Assembly: GCA_001805615.1 (NCBI GenBank)
Contig: MHGP01000073.1
Location: 28,156 to 92,155 of the forward strand
Length of the DNA: 64,000 nucleotides
Reading direction: 5' to 3'
Source: Omnitrophica WOR_2 bacterium RIFCSPHIGHO2_02_FULL_48_11
GTDB lineage: Bacteria; Omnitrophota; Gorgyraeia; Zapsychrales; GWA2-47-8
This document shows positions 38,774-46,902 of this stretch, piece after piece (the first letter of the stretch is position 1; every line of letters begins with the position of its first letter). The notes under the pieces were generated by a model, which worked only from the letters and a program-made list of their open reading frames with translations, was not told the DNA's origin and did not search any database. Both the position numbers and the translations under genes were made by a program.

Positions 38774-39421
38774 ATGTCTAAGAAAATTCAGCCGAAGAGA
38801 AATTCTAAAAAGATTTTTACCGTTATTTTGATCCTTGCTGTCGTAGCGGTTATCTTAGGGGTGCAGTGGTATTTGCAGTCGTCCCGCTCGCTCTCGCAAG
38901 GGGTGTCCTCCCGGGCCAAGGGAACCCCCGGCGCCGCCATTCATATCGTCGAGTATATTGACTTTGAATGTCCGGCATGTGCCACCGGAGCCAAAAAATT
39001 AAAAGAATACGTGGCCATGTATCCTGAGAAAATTTATTTGGAAATGCGTTATTATCCTCTTTTGAATATTCACCCGCATGCCCTGCACGCCGCTCGTTAC
39101 GCCCAATGTGCCGCTCAGCAGGGAAAATTTTGGCCGCTGCACGATCTCTTGATCGAGCGGCAAGGGCAGTGGCAATCTCTTATCAATGCCGACCCGGTTT
39201 TTATGCAGATGGCCCAAGAAGTGTCTTTGGACATGAACTCCCTCGAGGTATGCCTGCAGGATGAAAAAACCGTCAAGCTGATCCTTGAGGAGAGGGACAA
39301 GGGGAGTTCGTTAGGCGTTCAATCCACCCCGACATATTTTATTAATGAAAAAATGGTCGTTGGGGTTAAATCATTAACCGATATGCTGCAGCCGCTTCTA
39401 GAAAATGGACAAAATAAATAA
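38774..39421 (+). CDS. membrane-anchored DsbA-like thiol:disulfide oxidoreductase (thioredoxin fold, CPAC)
   Basis: N-terminal TM. IDFECPACATGAKKLKEY active site. Confidence 0.75.
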   Translation: MSKKIQPKRNSKKIFTVILILAVVAVILGVQWYLQSSRSLSQGVSSRAKGTPGAAIHIVEYIDFECPACATGAKKLKEYVAMYPEKIYLEMRYYPLLNIHPHALHAARYAQCAAQQGKFWPLHDLLIERQGQWQSLINADPVFMQMAQEVSLDMNSLEVCLQDEKTVKLILEERDKGSSLGVQSTPTYFINEKMVVGVKSLTDMLQPLLENGQNK

Positions 39422-39863
39422 CTTCGGTGTTATCGCACGGATCCTGCTCGGGACAATTTTTGTCGTCTCGGGTGCGGAAAAACTTCTTAGTCCCTACCAA
39501 AATTTTCTTTATGTCATCCAAAATTATCAGCTAATCGGCCCGCCTCTGGACGAATGGGTCGCCCGGATCTTTCCATGGATCGAATTTTTGCTGGGATTGT
39601 TCTGCCTTTTGGGTCTGTGGCTGACGCGGTCTTTGGAAGGGATCCTGGTTATCGTGACGGTTTTTATCGGCGTTGTCGGACAGGCCCTGATCCGCGGCTT
39701 GCCGATCGACGAATGCGGTTGCTTTGGCAGCCTTGTTTCGCTTCCCTTGCAGGGAGTGATCATCGTGGATAGCTGCCTGTGGCTGTTAACGTCCTGGCTG
39801 CTTTTCCCCGGCGCTAAGGCTTCGCGTTTCAGTCTCGACGAGTATTTTTCAAAAAATTCATAA
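39405..39863 (+). CDS. MauE/DoxX-like membrane protein with CGCFG motif
   Basis: Four predicted TM helices and DECGCFGS, characteristic of the MauE / DoxX-like family. It overlaps the upstream gene by 17 nt. Confidence 0.6.
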   Translation: MDKINNFGVIARILLGTIFVVSGAEKLLSPYQNFLYVIQNYQLIGPPLDEWVARIFPWIEFLLGLFCLLGLWLTRSLEGILVIVTVFIGVVGQALIRGLPIDECGCFGSLVSLPLQGVIIVDSCLWLLTSWLLFPGAKASRFSLDEYFSKNS

Positions 39864-39874
39864 TCTTAAACGAT

Positions 39875-41395
39875 ATGGCTTTGAGAGTTAAGAGAACACT
39901 GCGGATCCGGGGTTTATTTTTATTTTTCTTGATCGCTATGACTTCTTTTGCCTTTAGCCAGCCGGAAATCAAAGAACCCAATGTCAGCGGGCAGTTTTAT
40001 GACGCTGATCCTAAGCGTTTGTCCCGCATGGTGGATGAGTTCCTGAGCCTGGCCTCCGTCCCGCAGAAAGACAAAAGAATAGAAATGATCATTGCTCCGC
40101 ACGCCGGGTATGTGTATTCCGGGGCCGTAGCCGGATACAGTTTTAAGGCGGCCAGTCAAGGAAAATATAAAACAGTGGTGATCGTCGCCCCGAGTCATTT
40201 TTACGAATTTGACGGTGTTTCGATCTGGAAAGAGGGGGGATTCAAAACGCCTTTAGGGGTGGTGGCGGTGGATCAAGATTTTACGGAAAAATTGATCGGC
40301 CGAAATGCAAAATTTTCTTTTGACGCCGCGGCGTTCGATCGGGAACATTCCCTCGAAGTGGAAATTCCTTTTTTGCAAAGAACGTTTAGTGATTTTAAAA
40401 TTGTGCCGGTGGTGATGGGCCAGGCGACGTTTCAGACGTGCGAGGCCTTTGCCGCAGCGCTCAAAGAGGTGATCGGTGACCGGGAAGATGTGCTGATTGT
40501 CATCAGCACGGATCTGTCCCATTACCACGATTATGACCTTGCCCGGGAGATGGACCATCGCACTTTGGCGGCCGTCAAAATAGGCAATGCCCAAGAATTG
40601 TGGAAACAGTGCCGCTTGGGAACAATGGAGATGTGCGGTTTTATTCCGGTGACAACCGCGCTTTTATACGCTCAGCTCAAGGGATTGAACGATGTGGAAA
40701 TTTTGCGGTATGCCAACTCCGGGGATGTGACCGGAGACCGCGGCCGGGTAGTCGGGTATTCGTCGGTGATCTTTTATGAGGGAACAGAGAAGACCCCTGT
40801 GGATAAAAAAGCCGCAGCAGAAGTTCCTGCCCAGGCCGGGTCGTTCACGCAAGAGCAAAAAAAGCGGCTGCTTGAGATCGCGCGCGGCACCATCGAAGAG
40901 TATGTGCGCACCGGCAAGAAAGTGGAAGTTTCGGAAACAGACCCGCGCCTTCTCAGGGAAGAAGGGGCGTTCGTGACCATCCATCGGCAAGGCCAGCTGC
41001 GCGGCTGCATCGGGAACATTATCGGACAGGGGCCGCTTTATCTCACCGTGCGTAATATGGCCATCGCGGCCGCCTCGGAAGATCCGCGGTTTCCGCCGGT
41101 CAGCGAAGCAGAGTTAAAGGATCTTGAGGTGGAAATTTCCGTCTTGTCGCAGCCCAGGCCCGCTAACAGTATTAAGGAGATTACCATGGGAGTACACGGG
41201 GTGATCGTCAAGAAAGGATTTCATGGCGGGGTTTTTTTGCCGCAGGTGGCGACCGATACCGGCTGGAGCCGGGACGAATTCCTCTCTCAGCTGTGCGAGC
41301 AGAAAGCCGGATTGCCGCGCGATTGCTGGAAAGATCCCAGAACGCGGTTGGAAATTTTTACGGCGGAAGTTTTCTCGGGAAAAGACGTAAAATAA
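39875..41395 (+). CDS. Memo-like / AMMECR1 fusion protein with N-terminal signal peptide
   Basis: The N-terminal half has MIIAPHAGYVYSGAVAGY and VIVAPSHF (Memo/extradiol-dioxygenase class III-like). The C-terminal half has FVTIHRQGQLRGCIGNIIG...ASEDPRF (AMMECR1). The first 30 aa (LRIRGLFLFFLIAMTSFAFSQP) look like a signal peptide. Confidence 0.8.
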   Translation: MALRVKRTLRIRGLFLFFLIAMTSFAFSQPEIKEPNVSGQFYDADPKRLSRMVDEFLSLASVPQKDKRIEMIIAPHAGYVYSGAVAGYSFKAASQGKYKTVVIVAPSHFYEFDGVSIWKEGGFKTPLGVVAVDQDFTEKLIGRNAKFSFDAAAFDREHSLEVEIPFLQRTFSDFKIVPVVMGQATFQTCEAFAAALKEVIGDREDVLIVISTDLSHYHDYDLAREMDHRTLAAVKIGNAQELWKQCRLGTMEMCGFIPVTTALLYAQLKGLNDVEILRYANSGDVTGDRGRVVGYSSVIFYEGTEKTPVDKKAAAEVPAQAGSFTQEQKKRLLEIARGTIEEYVRTGKKVEVSETDPRLLREEGAFVTIHRQGQLRGCIGNIIGQGPLYLTVRNMAIAAASEDPRFPPVSEAELKDLEVEISVLSQPRPANSIKEITMGVHGVIVKKGFHGGVFLPQVATDTGWSRDEFLSQLCEQKAGLPRDCWKDPRTRLEIFTAEVFSGKDVK

Positions 41396-41406
41396 AAATT
41401 ATCCTT

Positions 41407-41859
41407 ATGAAATTGCGCGATACCGTCATCACGATTTTTGTCATCCTCTGGCTGGCCGTATTCAACTACGAATCTATTCACCGGTATTATCTGGAACCTT
41501 GGCTGAAGCGGCCGCTGCCTAAAATGAAACTGCTTTTCCCTCCGGCCGGGTGGATCATGTTTTACAATGTCGAAGATGATTACGGCTATGCGCAAATTTA
41601 CGGGGTCAATGTCGACGGCGTTCAGGAGATCGATCCGCACGAGATCTTGGCTACGCGGACCATCGGGTTCGACAATATCCACCGGAATGTTCTTTTGGTC
41701 GTTTTTGGCGAGGCCATGCCGGGGCAGGTGTGCCGGTTCTTGGAACGCAAATTCCCGGAATTTGATAATTTTTTGATCACGGCGGCGCAGTATCCTTCGC
41801 TGACGCAGACCCCGCATAAAAAACTCCAGCGGGTGTTGTATCAGTGCAAGGAAAAGTGA
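41407..41859 (+). CDS. small membrane protein, candidate SdpA-like partner of the HTTM protein
   Basis: The start is re-picked at 41407. 150 aa with an N-terminal TM (VITIFVILWLAVF). Separated by 11 nt and 15 nt from its neighbours. The SdpA analogy is inference from size and position only. Confidence 0.5.
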   Translation: MKLRDTVITIFVILWLAVFNYESIHRYYLEPWLKRPLPKMKLLFPPAGWIMFYNVEDDYGYAQIYGVNVDGVQEIDPHEILATRTIGFDNIHRNVLLVVFGEAMPGQVCRFLERKFPEFDNFLITAAQYPSLTQTPHKKLQRVLYQCKEK

Positions 41860-41874
41860 GGCTAAGTCCTATTT

Positions 41875-43167
41875 ATGAATAAAATTTGGCACACATTGTT
41901 CCTGGAAGAGCGTCCCTCGGTGAGCCTCTCATTATTCCGGATCGCGGTCGCCATCACCGTCGGCGCCCACGTCATTCCGACATTATGGAACCTGCCGGAC
42001 AATTATTACGCCACCGCGCTTAAAACTTTTAATTTTGATTTTTTCCCTGTACAGCTCATTGAGCTTGTTCAGCGCAGCTCGGACCAGACGGTCTTGTTCT
42101 TTGTTATTGTCTTTTATGTTTTTTGGTTCTTTTTCCTGATCGGATTGTTCAGCCGGTTGAGCTGCATCCTGATGACCCTGGCCGGGTATTATTTTTATGC
42201 GTTGAATTCGCTGCATGTCGGGACCTTGTCTTGGGATATCTTGCTGGTCACGCTTTTTCTCATGTGCTTGACACCGTATCACGGCGACTATTTTTCCGTC
42301 GATGCCGTGCGGCGGGGGGATGCGGGAAGCTACAAGCGAAAGCGGCCGTTCTTTCTGCAGCGGTTGCTGCAGATCCAGATCGCTTCGACATTTTTTTATA
42401 CGGCGCTTTATAAGATCACCGGCACCGGCAACTGGATCAGCGGCAATCCTATTTATTATCTGATGAATTATCCGCCGGCGGGTGTCACCAAATGGTTCCT
42501 GCTGCGGGATTTTTTTATGGACAAGCCCGGCCTTTGCTATGCGGCGGGCCTCTTGATCCTGATCATTGAAATTTCGATGCCGGTCTTATTGTTCTGGCGA
42601 CGCACCCGGATGTCGGCGATTTATGTGGGGTGCTTTTTTCATCTCGTCCTCATTTTAACGCTGGATGTGCCGGCGATCTTCTTTTTTCTCTTCCCGCCGC
42701 AACTGTTGTTATTCATCAACCCGGAAAATATCGTGCGTTGGATCGAACAGAAGCGCCGGGCTAACGCGCAGGCTCCGCAGAGTCAGCTTATCTACGACGG
42801 GCATTGCCAATTTTGCCGGCGCAGCGTACAACAGCTGCAGGTCATGGATTTATTCCATACGCTTAAAATGGTGGACTTCCAGTCGACCAGTCATTTGGAG
42901 GCATTGCATCCTGAGCTGAGCAAGGAGCGCTGTGCCAGCCAGCTCCATTTGCTTGAACCCGACCGAACATTGTACGGAGGATTTGCGGTCTTTCGGCGGC
43001 TGTGCCTTATCCTGCCGATGCTGTATCCGTTCATATTGCTGTTTTATTTTCCGGGCTCGGGGATCGTCGGTCCGTTCGTCTATCGCTGGGTCGCGCAAAA
43101 CCGGTATCTTTTTCATTTCAATAAAACCTGCAAAGACAATGCCTGCTTTTTGGGGCATGGAAAATAA
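41875..43167 (+). CDS. HTTM-domain (vitamin K-dependent gamma-carboxylase / SdpB-like) membrane protein fused to C-terminal DCC/DUF393 thiol-disulfide oxidoreductase domain
   Basis: About 300-aa polytopic N-terminus with an HTTM-like pattern (LSLFRIAVA..., multiple aromatic TM helices). The C-terminus is LIYDGHCQFCRRSVQ...LYGGFAVFRRL, which is the DCC-family DGxCxxC signature. Confidence 0.7.
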   Translation: MNKIWHTLFLEERPSVSLSLFRIAVAITVGAHVIPTLWNLPDNYYATALKTFNFDFFPVQLIELVQRSSDQTVLFFVIVFYVFWFFFLIGLFSRLSCILMTLAGYYFYALNSLHVGTLSWDILLVTLFLMCLTPYHGDYFSVDAVRRGDAGSYKRKRPFFLQRLLQIQIASTFFYTALYKITGTGNWISGNPIYYLMNYPPAGVTKWFLLRDFFMDKPGLCYAAGLLILIIEISMPVLLFWRRTRMSAIYVGCFFHLVLILTLDVPAIFFFLFPPQLLLFINPENIVRWIEQKRRANAQAPQSQLIYDGHCQFCRRSVQQLQVMDLFHTLKMVDFQSTSHLEALHPELSKERCASQLHLLEPDRTLYGGFAVFRRLCLILPMLYPFILLFYFPGSGIVGPFVYRWVAQNRYLFHFNKTCKDNACFLGHGK

Positions 43168-43253
43168 AAGAAATTGCTGACGGCTTTTTGTATTGTGATA
43201 AGATAGCGGTGTTTAAAAATACGACACAAAATTATGCAAGGTGGGGGTTTTCA

Positions 43254-43934
43254 ATGCGTCTGTTGCGATTATATTCTATTTTTATGATCATTTTTTGCTT
43301 GAGCGGGCCTGCCGTCGCCGATGAGGTTCCCGTCGCCGATGAGGTCTCCGAAAAGGCGCTCCAGGAATTTCAACGCTCATATCGTAAAGAAAAAAAACAG
43401 CAAGCGAAGGACGTGCGCAAGCAAGAAAAGGCGGAGCACAAAGCGGCTTTGCGGGAGGAGAAACGCGCCCGCAAACAAGAACGCCTGGAGAGTAAAAAAG
43501 CTAAAAAAGCAGCCCGGGTTCCGAAAAAACAAAAGCCTCAGGTGACAAAAGTTAAACCGCCAAAAAAAACAAAGGCGTTGGCTAAAAAGAAAATCGCTAA
43601 TGAGCAAAAGCAGCAGCGCAAGAAAATATCGCAGGGGCGGCAGTCGGAGTGGGACCGGCAGGTAAAGCAAAAACAAAAAGAAATCAGCCAGCAGCGTGCC
43701 AAGATCAAGAAGGAAATGACCGATGGGATAGAGCCGCTGTATCAAGACGCGGTGCGGGAATATAAAGCCAAGAATTATGCTATGGCGGAAGAAATATTTT
43801 TAGAAATCGATCAGCTCATGCCGGACTACCGGCAGACCAAGGATTATTTGAGCCGCCTGGGATCGCAGCCGGAGCTAGGGGTGTCCCGCGGCCGGCACGG
43901 TATTGTTTCCGACGCCCTGGACAGTATCCCTTAA
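43254..43934 (+). CDS. secreted K/E/R-rich coiled-coil protein with helical C-terminal domain
   Basis: The start is re-picked at 43254. Signal MRLLRLYSIFMIIFCLSGPAVA. Tandem VADEVPVADEVSE duplication. A 150-aa lysine-rich block. Confidence 0.6.
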   Translation: MRLLRLYSIFMIIFCLSGPAVADEVPVADEVSEKALQEFQRSYRKEKKQQAKDVRKQEKAEHKAALREEKRARKQERLESKKAKKAARVPKKQKPQVTKVKPPKKTKALAKKKIANEQKQQRKKISQGRQSEWDRQVKQKQKEISQQRAKIKKEMTDGIEPLYQDAVREYKAKNYAMAEEIFLEIDQLMPDYRQTKDYLSRLGSQPELGVSRGRHGIVSDALDSIP

Positions 43935-43942
43935 GAGAGTTT

Positions 43943-44284
43943 ATGAAATATTTAAAATTTTTCATTCTTTTGGCAATCTTAAGCACCGCCGGAACGTCTT
44001 GGGCTATCCCGGCGTCCAAGATCGAGCTGAGCTATGATCCGGGAAAAAAGATCTTGCATACGAAAGTCAGCCATGTCACCCAGCGCAATCGCAAGCATTA
44101 TATCCGCTCCATCATTGTTTATAAAAACGATCAGGAAGTCAAATCTTTGCATTATGTCGTGCAGGAAAAGTCTTCCGGGGTGGAGGAGGATATCCCTCTG
44201 GAAGCCAATAAAGATGAAGTGATCCGTGTCAAAGCCCAATGCACGGAATCCGGCCCGAAAGAAGAAACGCTCGTCATCCCTTAA
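43943..44284 (+). CDS. small secreted protein (hypothetical)
   Basis: Signal peptide ...TSWA. 113 aa. No motif recognised. Confidence 0.5.
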
Positions 44285-46413
44285 TGACTCACCCGCACAC
44301 CAATCGTCTTATTCACGAAAAAAGTCCGTATCTTTTACAGCATGCGCATAATCCGGTGGATTGGTATTCCTGGGCAGCGGAGGCCTTTGCCAAGGCCAAG
44401 AAAGAAGATAAACCGATCTTTCTTTCCATCGGATATTCGACTTGCCATTGGTGTCATGTCATGGAACATGAATCCTTTGAGAACGAAGAGATCGCCCAGG
44501 TTTTGAATGAACATTTTGTTCCGGTCAAAGTGGACCGGGAAGAGCGGCCGGATTTGGATAATGTGTATATGACGGTCGTCACGGCGTTGACGGGGAGCGG
44601 GGGATGGCCGCTGTCGGTTTTTCTTTCACCGGATAAAAAGCCGTTTTACGGCGGAACGTATTTTCCGCCGCAGGCCCGGTGGGGCGCTCCCGGATTTAAA
44701 GATGTGTTGCTTTCCATTCACAACAGCTGGCAGACGCAGAAACAAGAAATTTTGAAATCCGGCGAAGCCATCACCCAGGCTTTGCAAGAACGTTCGGGGG
44801 CGCGGCGGGTCGAGAAGATTGATTTGAACGCCCAGCTGCTGCGCGGAGGTTATCAGGATTTGGCGGCTAACTATGATCCGCGTTACGGCGGGTTCGGCGA
44901 GTCACCGAAGTTTCCGATGGGGCACAGCTTGTCATTTTTGCTGCGGTATGGGAACCGTTTCGCGGAACCGCAGGCGCTTGCGATGGTCGAAAAGACGCTC
45001 ACGGCTATGGCCCAGGGCGGCATGTATGATCAATTGGGCGGAGGGTTTCACCGGTACTCGACGGATCGCATTTGGCAGGTCCCGCATTTTGAAAAAATGC
45101 TTTATGATCAAGCGATCCTGGCAAAAATATATCTGGAAGCGTATCAGGCCACGAGGGATGAATTCTATCGCCGCATTGCCGCAGAGATTTTAGACTATGT
45201 CCTGCGGGACATGCATTCGCCCGCGGGGGGATTTTTTTCAGCGGAAGATGCGGACAGTCTTGAATCGGCCGGGGGCACGGAAAAAAAAGAAGGCGTTTTT
45301 TATGTGTGGCCCGAAAGCGAGATCAGGACCATCCTGAGCAGCGAGGAAGCGGATATTTTTTGCGCTCATTTTGGGATCGAAAAGAACGGCAATGCGCAGT
45401 TTGATCCGCACGGTGAATTTGCCGGAAAGAATATTATTTTTGTCGCGCATTCTCTGGAGGAAGCCGCCCAGAAATTTCAAAAGGTTCCGGCGGATGTCGA
45501 GTGGATCATCCGGCAGGCTAAGAAAAAATTATATGCCGTGCAGACTCAGCGGCCGCGGCCGCACCTCGATGATAAAATTCTGGTCGATTGGAATGGTTTG
45601 ATGATCGCGAGTTTTGCGACGGCGTATTCTCTGCTGGGGGAAAAACGTTATCTGACAGCGGCCCAGCAGGCGGCTGATTTTATTTTGCAGAAATTGGTTA
45701 ACCGGGAAGGGCGGTTGCTGCACCGGTTTCGCGACGGTGAGGCGGCGATCTTGGGGACGATCGAAGATTATGCCTTTTTTATCCACGGCCTGATCGATCT
45801 TTATCAGGCAAATTTTGAAGTGAAATATTTTCAGGAAGCGATGCGTCTAACAGAAGAGATGCTGCGTTTGTTTTGGGATGAGCCGCAGGGAGGATTTTTC
45901 TTTACAGCGTTGGACAGTGAGACATTGCTGTTTCGCCAAAAAGAGGTTTATGACGGCGCGATCCCCTCGGGAAATTCCGTGGCGGCGTTAGATTTGATCC
46001 GCCTAGCCCGCATGACGGGGAACGGGGATTTTGAAGCAAAGGCCGCGGCGCTTTTTCAATTTTTCGGTGCGGAACTTATGCAGCGGCCCAGCGCGTATAC
46101 GCAATTGTTCAGTGCTTTAAATTTTGCCTTAGGTCCTTCCCGGGAGATCGTTATTGCGGCGGATCGCCTGGAAGATCCTGCGGCACAGGAGATGCTCAAG
46201 GCAAGCCGGGCGGTTTTTTTGCCGAACACCGTGCTTTTGGCCCGCACGACGCATGATAAAAAACTGGCTGATCTCCTGCAGCTGGCCCCTTTTCTTAAAG
46301 AACAGCCCCCCATGAACGGCCAGCCGACCGCTTACGTCTGCGAGAATCATGTCTGCCGGCTCCCTACGAATTCGCCTGAGCAGTTTAAAAAACTTTTGCA
46401 GAGCGGGCCTTAA
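44284..46413 (+). CDS. thioredoxin-domain (DUF255) protein with (alpha/alpha)6 N-acylglucosamine-2-epimerase-like domain (YyaL / SSP411 family)
   Basis: The start is re-picked at 44284 (TAATG overlap). [20 protein letters not shown] is the thioredoxin-like CxxC of DUF255. The C-terminal ~450 aa form a six-hairpin fold family. Confidence 0.8.
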
Positions 46414-46479
46414 TCTTTTGCGGTTGACAAAGCCCTGCCCCCCTCTTAAAATAGAAAAAGTTTAGAGGTCCCTTATAAT

Positions 46480-46902
46480 ATGATTTCCTACTTTTTTTAT
46501 ATTTTAATTATCGTTGTATTTTGCCTACCGATCGGCGGATTTCTTCTCAATTCTAAAGAAACCGATCCGTTCCAGCTTTATAAAACCATGGTAGGAGATA
46601 GAAATTTCTTTAAGGAAAATTCTGAACATCAGCAATCCCTGTCGGAACAGAGGCGGGACACCAGGTATCTGATGGAAAGAGTGAAAGACAGTCAGCGGTT
46701 GGCCAGGATGCAGCAGCAAGACCAGGGAAGAAAACTGGAGAGACTGCGGGAAGAGCAGCGCAGCCGGCAGCGGCAGGCGCTTAACAGCAGCCAGGCTGCA
46801 GCGCGGCAAGCGCAAGATTTGATACGCCAGCAGCAGGAAAGAAGCCGGGACCTTAATAACCGTTATAAAGATTTGATGGCCGCGCGACGGTCGATGCGCT
46901 AA
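46480..46902 (+). CDS. membrane-anchored Q/R-rich coiled-coil protein (hypothetical)
   Basis: One N-terminal TM, then a Q/R/E-rich helical region. Confidence 0.5.
   Translation: MISYFFYILIIVVFCLPIGGFLLNSKETDPFQLYKTMVGDRNFFKENSEHQQSLSEQRRDTRYLMERVKDSQRLARMQQQDQGRKLERLREEQRSRQRQALNSSQAAARQAQDLIRQQQERSRDLNNRYKDLMAARRSMR

Follow-up and report, generated by a model that had tools for sequence, protein, structure and literature searches.

Bacterial HTTM proteins are prokaryotic relatives of human vitamin-K carboxylase (GGCX), and to our knowledge a function is known only for MloH and, on genetic grounds, for SdpB. Here we analyse two adjacent genes within a 64,000-nucleotide (nt) stretch of Omnitrophota DNA (Omnitrophica WOR_2 bacterium RIFCSPHIGHO2_02_FULL_48_11, contig MHGP01000073.1), referred to below as the window. 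The first encodes a protein of 150 amino acids (aa), p150, and the second an HTTM protein that continues into a DCC1-like domain, HTTM-DCC. The human enzyme has nine transmembrane (TM) helices; Lys218 is its general base, Trp223 stacks on Lys218, Phe299 is the CO2-stacking residue, and the loop that follows TM9 (LL9, M401/M402) contacts Lys218 via M401 (PMC12647623). An AlphaFold 3 (AF3) model of a DUF5819-HTTM pair resembles the whole of GGCX, marking the pair as a split GGCX homologue (bioRxiv 10.64898/2026.08.19.745780). In that model the TM helix of DUF5819 superposes on a GGCX TM helix and the DUF5819 domain takes the place of the GGCX clamp, with L59 and F60 contacting the vitamin K pocket (10.64898/2026.08.19.745780). 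For MloH, the HTTM-family carboxylase of Streptomyces malonomycin biosynthesis, two sources describe proven carboxylation of a substrate other than the gamma-carboxyglutamate (Gla) type (PMC12647623; 10.64898/2026.08.19.745780).

Compared with these systems, the locus in the window is best classed as a variant of the split-GGCX module of DUF5819, HTTM and DCC; its partner family had gone unrecognised, and its link to an exported Memo-AMMECR1 protein had not been reported before. We think it reasonably probable that p150 and HTTM-DCC together make up a split GGCX-like module within an envelope redox operon of Omnitrophota. An initial annotation, made from the sequence alone, had likened the pair to SdpA and SdpB of Bacillus and had proposed that it matures the products of the two genes that follow, with the DCC domain performing the thiol-disulfide step on this cargo.

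The HTTM-DCC chain and its partner p150

HTTM-DCC matched two Pfam families above their gathering cutoffs: HTTM (PF05090; aa 16-281, E 2e-13, 51 bits against a cutoff of 27.7) and DCC1-like (PF04134, DUF393; aa 305-412, E 5.8e-20, 73.1 bits against 27.8). This agrees with the initial description of an HTTM protein with a C-terminal DCC motif, and the DCC domain is built into the HTTM chain itself. The motif, YDGHCQFCRRSVQ, occupies aa 307-319 and includes D-x-x-C-x-x-C, in which D308, G309, C311 and C314 were invariant across 36 Omnitrophota sequences; the tail of the protein has a second conserved Cys pair, C419/C424, of which C424 is also invariant. Almost all of the 617 homologues collected carry both PF05090 and PF04134. 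In GenBank the gene is recorded with a product of 301 aa (A2787_03175, P0124) that begins at M130 and so is missing TM1 to TM4 of the HTTM domain. More than 100 full-length homologues back the reading of 430 aa; the deposited gene call is mis-called, and our analysis corrects the public record.

The HTTM part of the protein matches the human carboxylase in fold. An AlphaFold model of HTTM-DCC (predicted local distance difference test, pLDDT, 86; predicted template modelling score, pTM, 0.82) was compared with solved structures using Foldseek, and 15 human GGCX structures were matched at E<=0.001, the best being 9l21_A (E 6.1e-7, probability 1.00, TMq 0.53, ~292-295 columns). A narrow Omnitrophota HTTM profile (A2) gave no match in the PDB. 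After HTTM proteins of Bacillus and Streptomyces were added to it, the broader profile (A4) matched GGCX residues 52-312 with an E of 1.2e-13. In the A4 alignment, K180 (codon 42412-42414) corresponds to GGCX K218 and W187 to Trp223, E232 stands at the Asp263 position, H256 falls at the conserved FH motif, and the invariant F269 lies at or beside Phe299; the residue roles used for this active site are those of PMC12647623. Both K180 and W187 were invariant in the 36 Omnitrophota sequences. Among 16 diverse HTTM proteins, W187 was present in every one and the Lys in 14, with Gln in its place in two Bacillus proteins.

Since the HTTM profile ends at GGCX residue 312, and TM9 and LL9 (residues 362-406) fall outside the covered region (52-312), the HTTM chain appears to hold only the first eight GGCX helices, with TM9, LL9 and the clamp absent. 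The distribution of charge in 36 homologues is consistent with such an eight-helix chain. Net charges were +0.9 at the N-terminus, +0.1, +1.8 and +1.1 in loops 2, 4 and 6, and +1.8 in the segment after TM8; in loops 1, 3, 5 and 7 they were -0.9, -0.1, +0.1 and -0.8. By the positive-inside rule, HTTM-DCC is predicted to be an N-in, 8-TM protein with its DCC CxxC domain in the cytoplasm, from where it could not form disulfides in exported cargo. The cargo-directed thiol-disulfide step that the initial annotation assigned to DCC is hard to reconcile with this predicted placement.

p150 would supply what the HTTM chain lacks. It has a single hydrophobic segment at about residues 6-24 (Kyte-Doolittle peak 1.8), and its AlphaFold model consists of a helix (residues 2-33) followed by a small alpha/beta domain. 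The invariant residues of the family include L43-F44-P45-P46-G48-W49-I50-M51-F52, C109 and C147, and both cysteines lie in the predicted periplasmic domain. The loop LFPPAGWIMF had a pLDDT below 50 in the isolated model, as would be expected if it becomes ordered only in a complex. We consider this loop a candidate equivalent of GGCX LL9 and of the QNWxLFAP motif of DUF5819: motif and position suggest, with no statistical support, that W49-I-M-F52 of p150 corresponds to W-x-L-F in DUF5819 and to W399-D-M-M in GGCX.

The p150 family is a diverged one. It comprises 248 database proteins (one, A2787_03185, being 100% identical to the window product), none of which has a Pfam domain, and a p150 profile run against 1.84 billion representative proteins returned only 47 matches, all from its own family; on these searches the family appears restricted to Omnitrophota. 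No SdpA or DUF5819 match was found for p150 in NCBIfam (E<=0.1) or Pfam (E<=10), and when 48 family members were scanned singly against Pfam (E<=10), 0/48 matched PF19136 (DUF5819) and none matched SdpA. Alignment of p150 with a DUF5819 alignment by hhalign found an 18-column motif after the TM segment (probability 8.7%, P 0.004). This weak motif common to both, Y..S....Y[LM].P[LW]F, scored ~2 bits with hmmsearch --max, and the link that it draws between p150 and DUF5819 is suggestive only. Neither hhalign nor Foldseek supported the proposed equivalence of the loop, and although the architecture and position of p150 would suit TM9 and LL9, its sequence and fold gave no significant match.

The likeness to SdpA and SdpB held for the gene order and for the obligate pairing and failed for the families themselves: p150 had no SdpA match, and the SdpB family, although the best NCBIfam match of the HTTM region, was a weak one (TIGR04033, 21.1 bits against a cutoff of 178.4, E 1.9e-4). 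Membership of the SdpA and SdpB families was ruled out by these hidden Markov model scores.

No natural p150-HTTM fusion suitable for folding as one chain was found among the relatives. One metagenomic protein, P0283 (204 aa), resembles a chimera: its N-terminus is that of a p150 homologue as far as LFLFPP, and from there it runs straight into the last part of an HTTM domain and a whole DCC domain. DNA seems to have been lost, by deletion or misassembly, between two FLFPP motifs, of which p150 has one and the final HTTM helix the other.

Conservation of the locus across Omnitrophota

To assess the conservation of the pair we surveyed one genome per species. HTTM-DCC relatives were present in 105 genomes, and 80 loci were kept, all from Omnitrophota-type metagenome-assembled genomes (MAGs; some labelled Planctomycetales), with 47-82% HTTM identity to the window protein. 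Counts for p150 were made over the 73 loci with at least 600 nt of upstream sequence, and counts for neighbouring genes over the 42 loci with long flanks. A p150 gene lay upstream of HTTM-DCC on the same strand in 73/73 loci, and was adjacent in 70, so that the arrangement described initially in the window, with a 150-aa single-TM protein directly before HTTM-DCC, recurs throughout. The gap between the two genes had a median of 2 nt, and 28/73 pairs overlap.

The conserved partners lie upstream and were missed by the initial annotation: a DsbA-like protein, a MauE protein and the exported Memo-AMMECR1 fusion. Memo-AMMECR1 was adjacent in 39/42 loci (32 upstream and co-directional, 7 downstream and convergent), and the AMMECR1 stop and p150 start overlapped in 13/52 loci. 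DsbA and MauE genes occurred in 32/42 loci each, always together. The genes downstream in the window were far less constant, with the 226-aa type following HTTM-DCC in 7/42 loci, the 113-aa type in 9/42 and DUF255 in 11/42; RodA/FtsW is the next gene in ~17 loci and unrelated genes follow elsewhere. Three loci (L025, L031 and L058) carry the p150-HTTM-DCC pair without these neighbours within 4 kb, and in L058 the pair stands alone. From these counts, the minimal unit is p150 plus HTTM-DCC, Memo-AMMECR1 is robustly linked to it, and DsbA-MauE is a frequent partner.

In L079, for example, the convergent Memo-AMMECR1 and HTTM-DCC genes overlap by 22 nt at their 3' ends amid unrelated flanking genes (aconitase, AcrB), and the start of Memo-AMMECR1 is itself overlapped, by 4 nt, by a NAD-kinase-like gene. 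Loci L057, L059, L061, L063, L064, L071 and L074-L083 form a subclade with Memo-AMMECR1 downstream on the opposite strand. This subclade includes high-GC MAGs (e.g., GWA2_63_20), and DsbA-MauE is not nearby.

In the window, the genes from 38774 to 46413 are all on the + strand and closely packed (Table 1).

Table 1. Features of the p150/HTTM-DCC locus (window positions)
Feature	Position	Strand	Description
DsbA-like thioredoxin-fold protein	38774..39421	+	215 aa; N-terminal membrane anchor; CPAC active site
MauE/DoxX-family integral membrane redox protein	39405..39863	+	152 aa; CGC motif
Memo + AMMECR1 fusion	39875..41395	+	506 aa; Sec-type signal peptide aa 1-28, nt 39875-39958
p150, unannotated family	41407..41859	+	150 aa; single N-in TM helix and predicted ~120-aa periplasmic domain
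p150 invariant loop LFPPAGWIMF (aa 43-52)	41533..41562	+	Invariant in 48 sequences
HTTM-DCC fusion protein	41875..43167	+	430 aa
HTTM domain (aa 16-281)	41920..42717	+	PF05090; 8-TM, equivalent to human GGCX TM1-TM8
DCC1-like thiol-disulfide oxidoreductase domain (aa 305-412)	42787..43110	+	PF04134; CxxC = C311-Q-F-C314, nt 42805-42816
226-aa secreted K/E-rich protein	43254..43934	+	Sec-type N-terminus; C-terminal TPR-like motif
113-aa secreted protein	43943..44284	+	Sec-type N-terminus; stop overlaps DUF255 start
DUF255 / Thioredox_DsbH (YyaL-like) thioredoxin-domain protein	44285..46413	+	Pfam PF03190, E 6.8e-81

The DsbA-like gene is the first of the operon (Pfam Thioredoxin_4, E 2.4e-22; DSBA, E 3.5e-15) and overlaps by 17 nt the gene for the MauE protein (Pfam MauE, E 3.4e-21; DoxX, E 2e-08), whose CGC motif sits in the membrane segment IDECGCFGS. 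By analogy with DsbA/DsbB, the two suggest a thiol-oxidation pair. The Memo-AMMECR1 protein matched both Pfam families strongly (Memo, E 1.4e-65; AMMECR1, E 3.6e-57), and p150 begins with an ATG 11 nt past its stop codon. Its signal peptide, MALRVKRTLRIRGLFLFFLIAMTSFAFS, which ends before QPE, is conserved in nearly all related loci and in both gene arrangements. On the strength of this conserved Sec signal, Memo-AMMECR1 is predicted to be exported to the periplasm, the compartment that the HTTM active site would face.

Memo and AMMECR1 are the B and A proteins of the AmmeMemoRadiSam system, and both are present here above the NCBIfam cutoffs (TIGR04336, 287 bits against 26; TIGR04335, 189 bits against 99). 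Unlike in that system, A and B are fused, carry a conserved Sec signal peptide and are linked to an HTTM enzyme, with no radical-SAM gene in the window. In a search for the radical-SAM partner (TIGR04337), no plausible gene of at least 150 aa with CxxxCxxC was found in the 64-kb window; the sole CxxxCxxC match was in an overlapping alternative-frame open reading frame (ORF). An exported, radical-SAM-independent version of AmmeMemoRadiSam A/B appears unusual. A search of the literature for papers connecting HTTM to AMMECR1, MauE or Omnitrophota returned nothing relevant.

The two genes that follow HTTM-DCC do encode signal-peptide proteins, as first described. The 226-aa product has a Sec-type N-terminus, MRLLRLYSIFMIIFCLSGPAVA, followed by DE; it is rich in K, E, R and Q and contains a tandem VADEVPVADEVSE (VADEV) duplication that is read directly in the DNA. 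It had no family match in Pfam, and its relatives match TPR weakly. Its family consists of secreted, extremely K/E/R/Q-rich proteins of ~100 to 746 aa that share a TPR-like motif, ..Y..A...Y....Y..A...F.EI....PDY..T..YL, and a C-terminal GIVSD, with no Pfam family; members include the product of L005 9726-11093 and that of the gene downstream of HTTM-DCC in L034. In two metagenomic proteins, P0192 (607 aa) and P0204 (521 aa), the HTTM-DCC ORF reads through into a downstream K/E-rich TPR-like protein, which shows how closely a gene of the 226-aa type can abut HTTM-DCC where it is present.

The 113-aa product has a Sec-type N-terminus with cleavage before IP. It matched the Desulfoferrodoxin/superoxide-reductase beta-sandwich weakly (E 0.02), with the motif HVT..n.KHYIR, and one homologue is without the Cys of the C-terminal region found in the others. 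Because its stop codon overlaps the DUF255 start (TAATG, 44282-44287), an arrangement of translational coupling, the 113-aa gene belongs with the DUF255 gene and not with the HTTM gene. Homologues of it directly precede DUF255 in L001 and follow HTTM in L003.

The locus survey ruled out the downstream secreted proteins as conserved cargo, and the proximity of the cargo genes proposed initially is local synteny. A scan for promoters and terminators was uninformative, with match counts close to the shuffled expectation. Directly 5' of a 140-aa gene at 46480, positions 46424-46479 hold two near-consensus sigma-70-like promoter matches, TTGACA-17-TAAAAT (11/12) and TAGAAA-16-TATAAT (10/12), which likely mark a new transcription unit after the DUF255 gene.

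A proposed mechanism and its alternatives

We propose that the HTTM domain provides TM1-8 and would hold a quinol-activating site, K180, W187, E232, H256 and F269, at the periplasmic face of the membrane. p150 would dock on this 8-TM domain as a ninth helix, a lid loop and part of the lumenal clamp. It would be the counterpart of the DUF5819 and SdpA proteins that accompany other bacterial HTTM proteins, with a periplasmic domain capable of forming a disulfide. Judging by residue conservation, the K180 site may activate quinol with O2 to give a strong base for proton abstraction, and perhaps for carboxylation. The cytoplasmic DCC CxxC would, speculatively, most likely feed or sense thiol redox equivalents for the quinone cofactor cycle rather than act on exported proteins. 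Gene linkage suggests that Memo-AMMECR1, usually with DsbA-MauE, may share the periplasmic substrate of the pair or maintain the cysteines of the components. The pair would be a vertically inherited chromosomal module of Omnitrophota and part of an envelope redox operon, and its probable substrate is a molecule of the periplasm or envelope that the phylum shares, rather than either of the two downstream secreted proteins.

One alternative retains the quinone and replaces the chemistry. HTTM-DCC could be a quinone-linked thiol oxidoreductase, an analogue of DsbB or VKOR and not a carboxylase or epoxidase, working with DsbA, MauE and DUF255, while p150 serves as an accessory or as a Cys-pair substrate. 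In its favour, the joining of a quinone enzyme to a thiol domain has an established precedent in VKOR-thioredoxin fusions, and the genes have a redox theme: CPAC in DsbA, CGC in MauE, CxxC and C419/C424 in HTTM-DCC, the thioredoxin domain of DUF255, and the two invariant Cys in the predicted periplasmic domain of p150. However, the DCC domain is predicted to lie across the membrane from DsbA, p150-HTTM-DCC persists in the 10/42 loci from which DsbA-MauE is absent, and conservation of the GGCX Lys/Trp/His set favours GGCX-type quinol activation. We regard a thiol oxidoreductase as unlikely.

The neighbours might also be bystanders, with p150 and HTTM-DCC the only functional unit and DsbA, MauE and Memo-AMMECR1 retained by synteny without a shared pathway. 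Inherited gene order is expected within one phylum, and L025, L031 and L058 keep the pair without the neighbours. Yet the adjacency of Memo-AMMECR1 has survived inversion and relocation (32 upstream, 7 convergent) amid otherwise unrelated flanks, AMMECR1 and p150 overlap at stop and start in 13 of 52 loci, and the conserved signal peptide puts Memo-AMMECR1 in the compartment of the HTTM active site. Retention by synteny seems to us similarly improbable.

An SdpA/SdpB-like machine that matures a toxin or peptide, with the 226-aa and 113-aa products as cargo and DCC performing their thiol-disulfide step, has in its favour the sdpAB order of a small single-TM protein and then HTTM, the Sec signal peptides of both products, the 226-aa-type genes of P0192 and P0204 that abut HTTM-DCC and are called as one ORF with it, and the small hypothetical genes or larger secreted-type proteins ("ice-binding family protein") that often lie beside plasmid DUF5819-HTTM loci, but it is very unlikely: the SdpA and SdpB models do not match and no SdpI/SdpR-like immunity genes are present at the locus, the candidate cargo occurs in only 7 and 9 of the 42 loci, with RodA/FtsW or unrelated genes otherwise, an 86-nt gap separates the HTTM-DCC stop codon from the 226-aa gene and the 113-aa gene is coupled to DUF255, the DCC CxxC is predicted to be cytoplasmic, and the pair spans at least 105 species-level genomes of one phylum, with p150 in every case examined, unlike patchy toxin cassettes.

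Several points weigh against the split GGCX-like module that we favour. GGCX chemistry needs O2 and naphthoquinol, and we know of no established role anywhere for a cytoplasmic DCC domain combined with a periplasm-facing active site. The isolated p150 model is moderately confident (pLDDT 78.6), DsbA-MauE is missing from those 10 loci, and gene order within one phylum can persist without shared function.

A bolder extension would unite the exported Memo-AMMECR1 and the split GGCX-like p150/HTTM-DCC in one Omnitrophota-specific, periplasm-facing pathway, in which an envelope protein or lipid is modified, possibly by carboxylation, through strong-base chemistry driven by quinol and O2. We hold this to be rather doubtful. 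If it is true, AMMECR1 and Memo would for the first time have a concrete biochemical setting beyond the radical-SAM trio, and bacteria would be seen to have a Gla-like or related modification system.

Relation to described systems

The SdpA/SdpB/SdpC system of Bacillus subtilis resembles the locus in that a small membrane-associated protein is encoded directly before a polytopic protein of the HTTM family. Unlike HTTM-DCC, SdpB has no DCC domain, and neither SdpC-like cargo nor sdpRI immunity genes were found at the locus. With human GGCX, HTTM-DCC shares the TM1-TM8 fold and the positions of Lys218, Trp223, an acidic residue near D263, and the His and Phe; the human protein differs in being a single chain with nine TM helices and lumenal clamps, in having no DCC domain, and in an identity of 17-19%. 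MloH is likewise a bacterial relative of GGCX, and shows that bacterial HTTM enzymes can be active. It differs in carrying HTTM and DUF5819-like regions in one chain and in belonging to a natural-product cluster, whereas the locus here has no polyketide synthase or non-ribosomal peptide synthetase (PKS/NRPS) context.

The nearest likeness is to DUF5819-HTTM pairs on plasmids, whose DUF5819 sequences we gathered from plasmid records (a search for Bacillus DUF5819 homologues returned 3 proteins). Searching plasmids with tblastn turned up HTTM-DCC fusions of Bacillus and Virgibacillus under the annotation "DCC1-like thiol-disulfide oxidoreductase family protein", each after a "DUF5819 family protein"; on Streptomyces plasmids the order is DUF5819, HTTM and then a separate DCC1-like gene. 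Altogether, 10 plasmid loci of Bacillota and Actinomycetota have a single-TM protein followed by HTTM(+DCC), annotated as DUF5819 and then HTTM or DCC1-like. Pairs of DUF5819 with HTTM-DCC1-like proteins include A0A1G6IAS5/A0A1G6IBF2 of Melghirimyces and WP_001057584/WP_000415787 of B. thuringiensis pCT83.

These pairs share with the locus the gene order, the HTTM+DCC architecture (446-456 aa in theirs, 430 aa here) and the HTTM residues R22, G90, Q168, W187 and H256, which are invariant in both groups. They differ in the partner, which has 150 aa here against 180-260 aa, has no PF19136 match and carries LFPPAGWIMF where DUF5819 has its QNWxLFAPxP hallmark, and the HTTM-DCC proteins themselves are only ~21% identical. 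The known DUF5819-HTTM pairs examined are plasmid-borne and lie near small hypothetical genes, peptidases or hydrolases, whereas the Omnitrophota pair lies on chromosomes throughout the phylum, in linkage with Memo-AMMECR1 and DsbA-MauE.

The HTTM-DCC fusion and its pairing with a small membrane protein are thus already known; what differs here is the partner family and the genomic company. That partner family is so diverged that no profile recognises p150, and the HTTM enzyme is genetically tied to an exported Memo-AMMECR1, whose domains have unsettled biochemical roles. If the linkage is functional, heterologous expression would offer a testable route to both the HTTM and the Memo-AMMECR1 problems. 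The split-GGCX design, an 8-TM HTTM domain with a single-TM subunit and DCC, would reach from the plasmids of Bacillota and Actinomycetota to the chromosomes of a whole uncultivated phylum.

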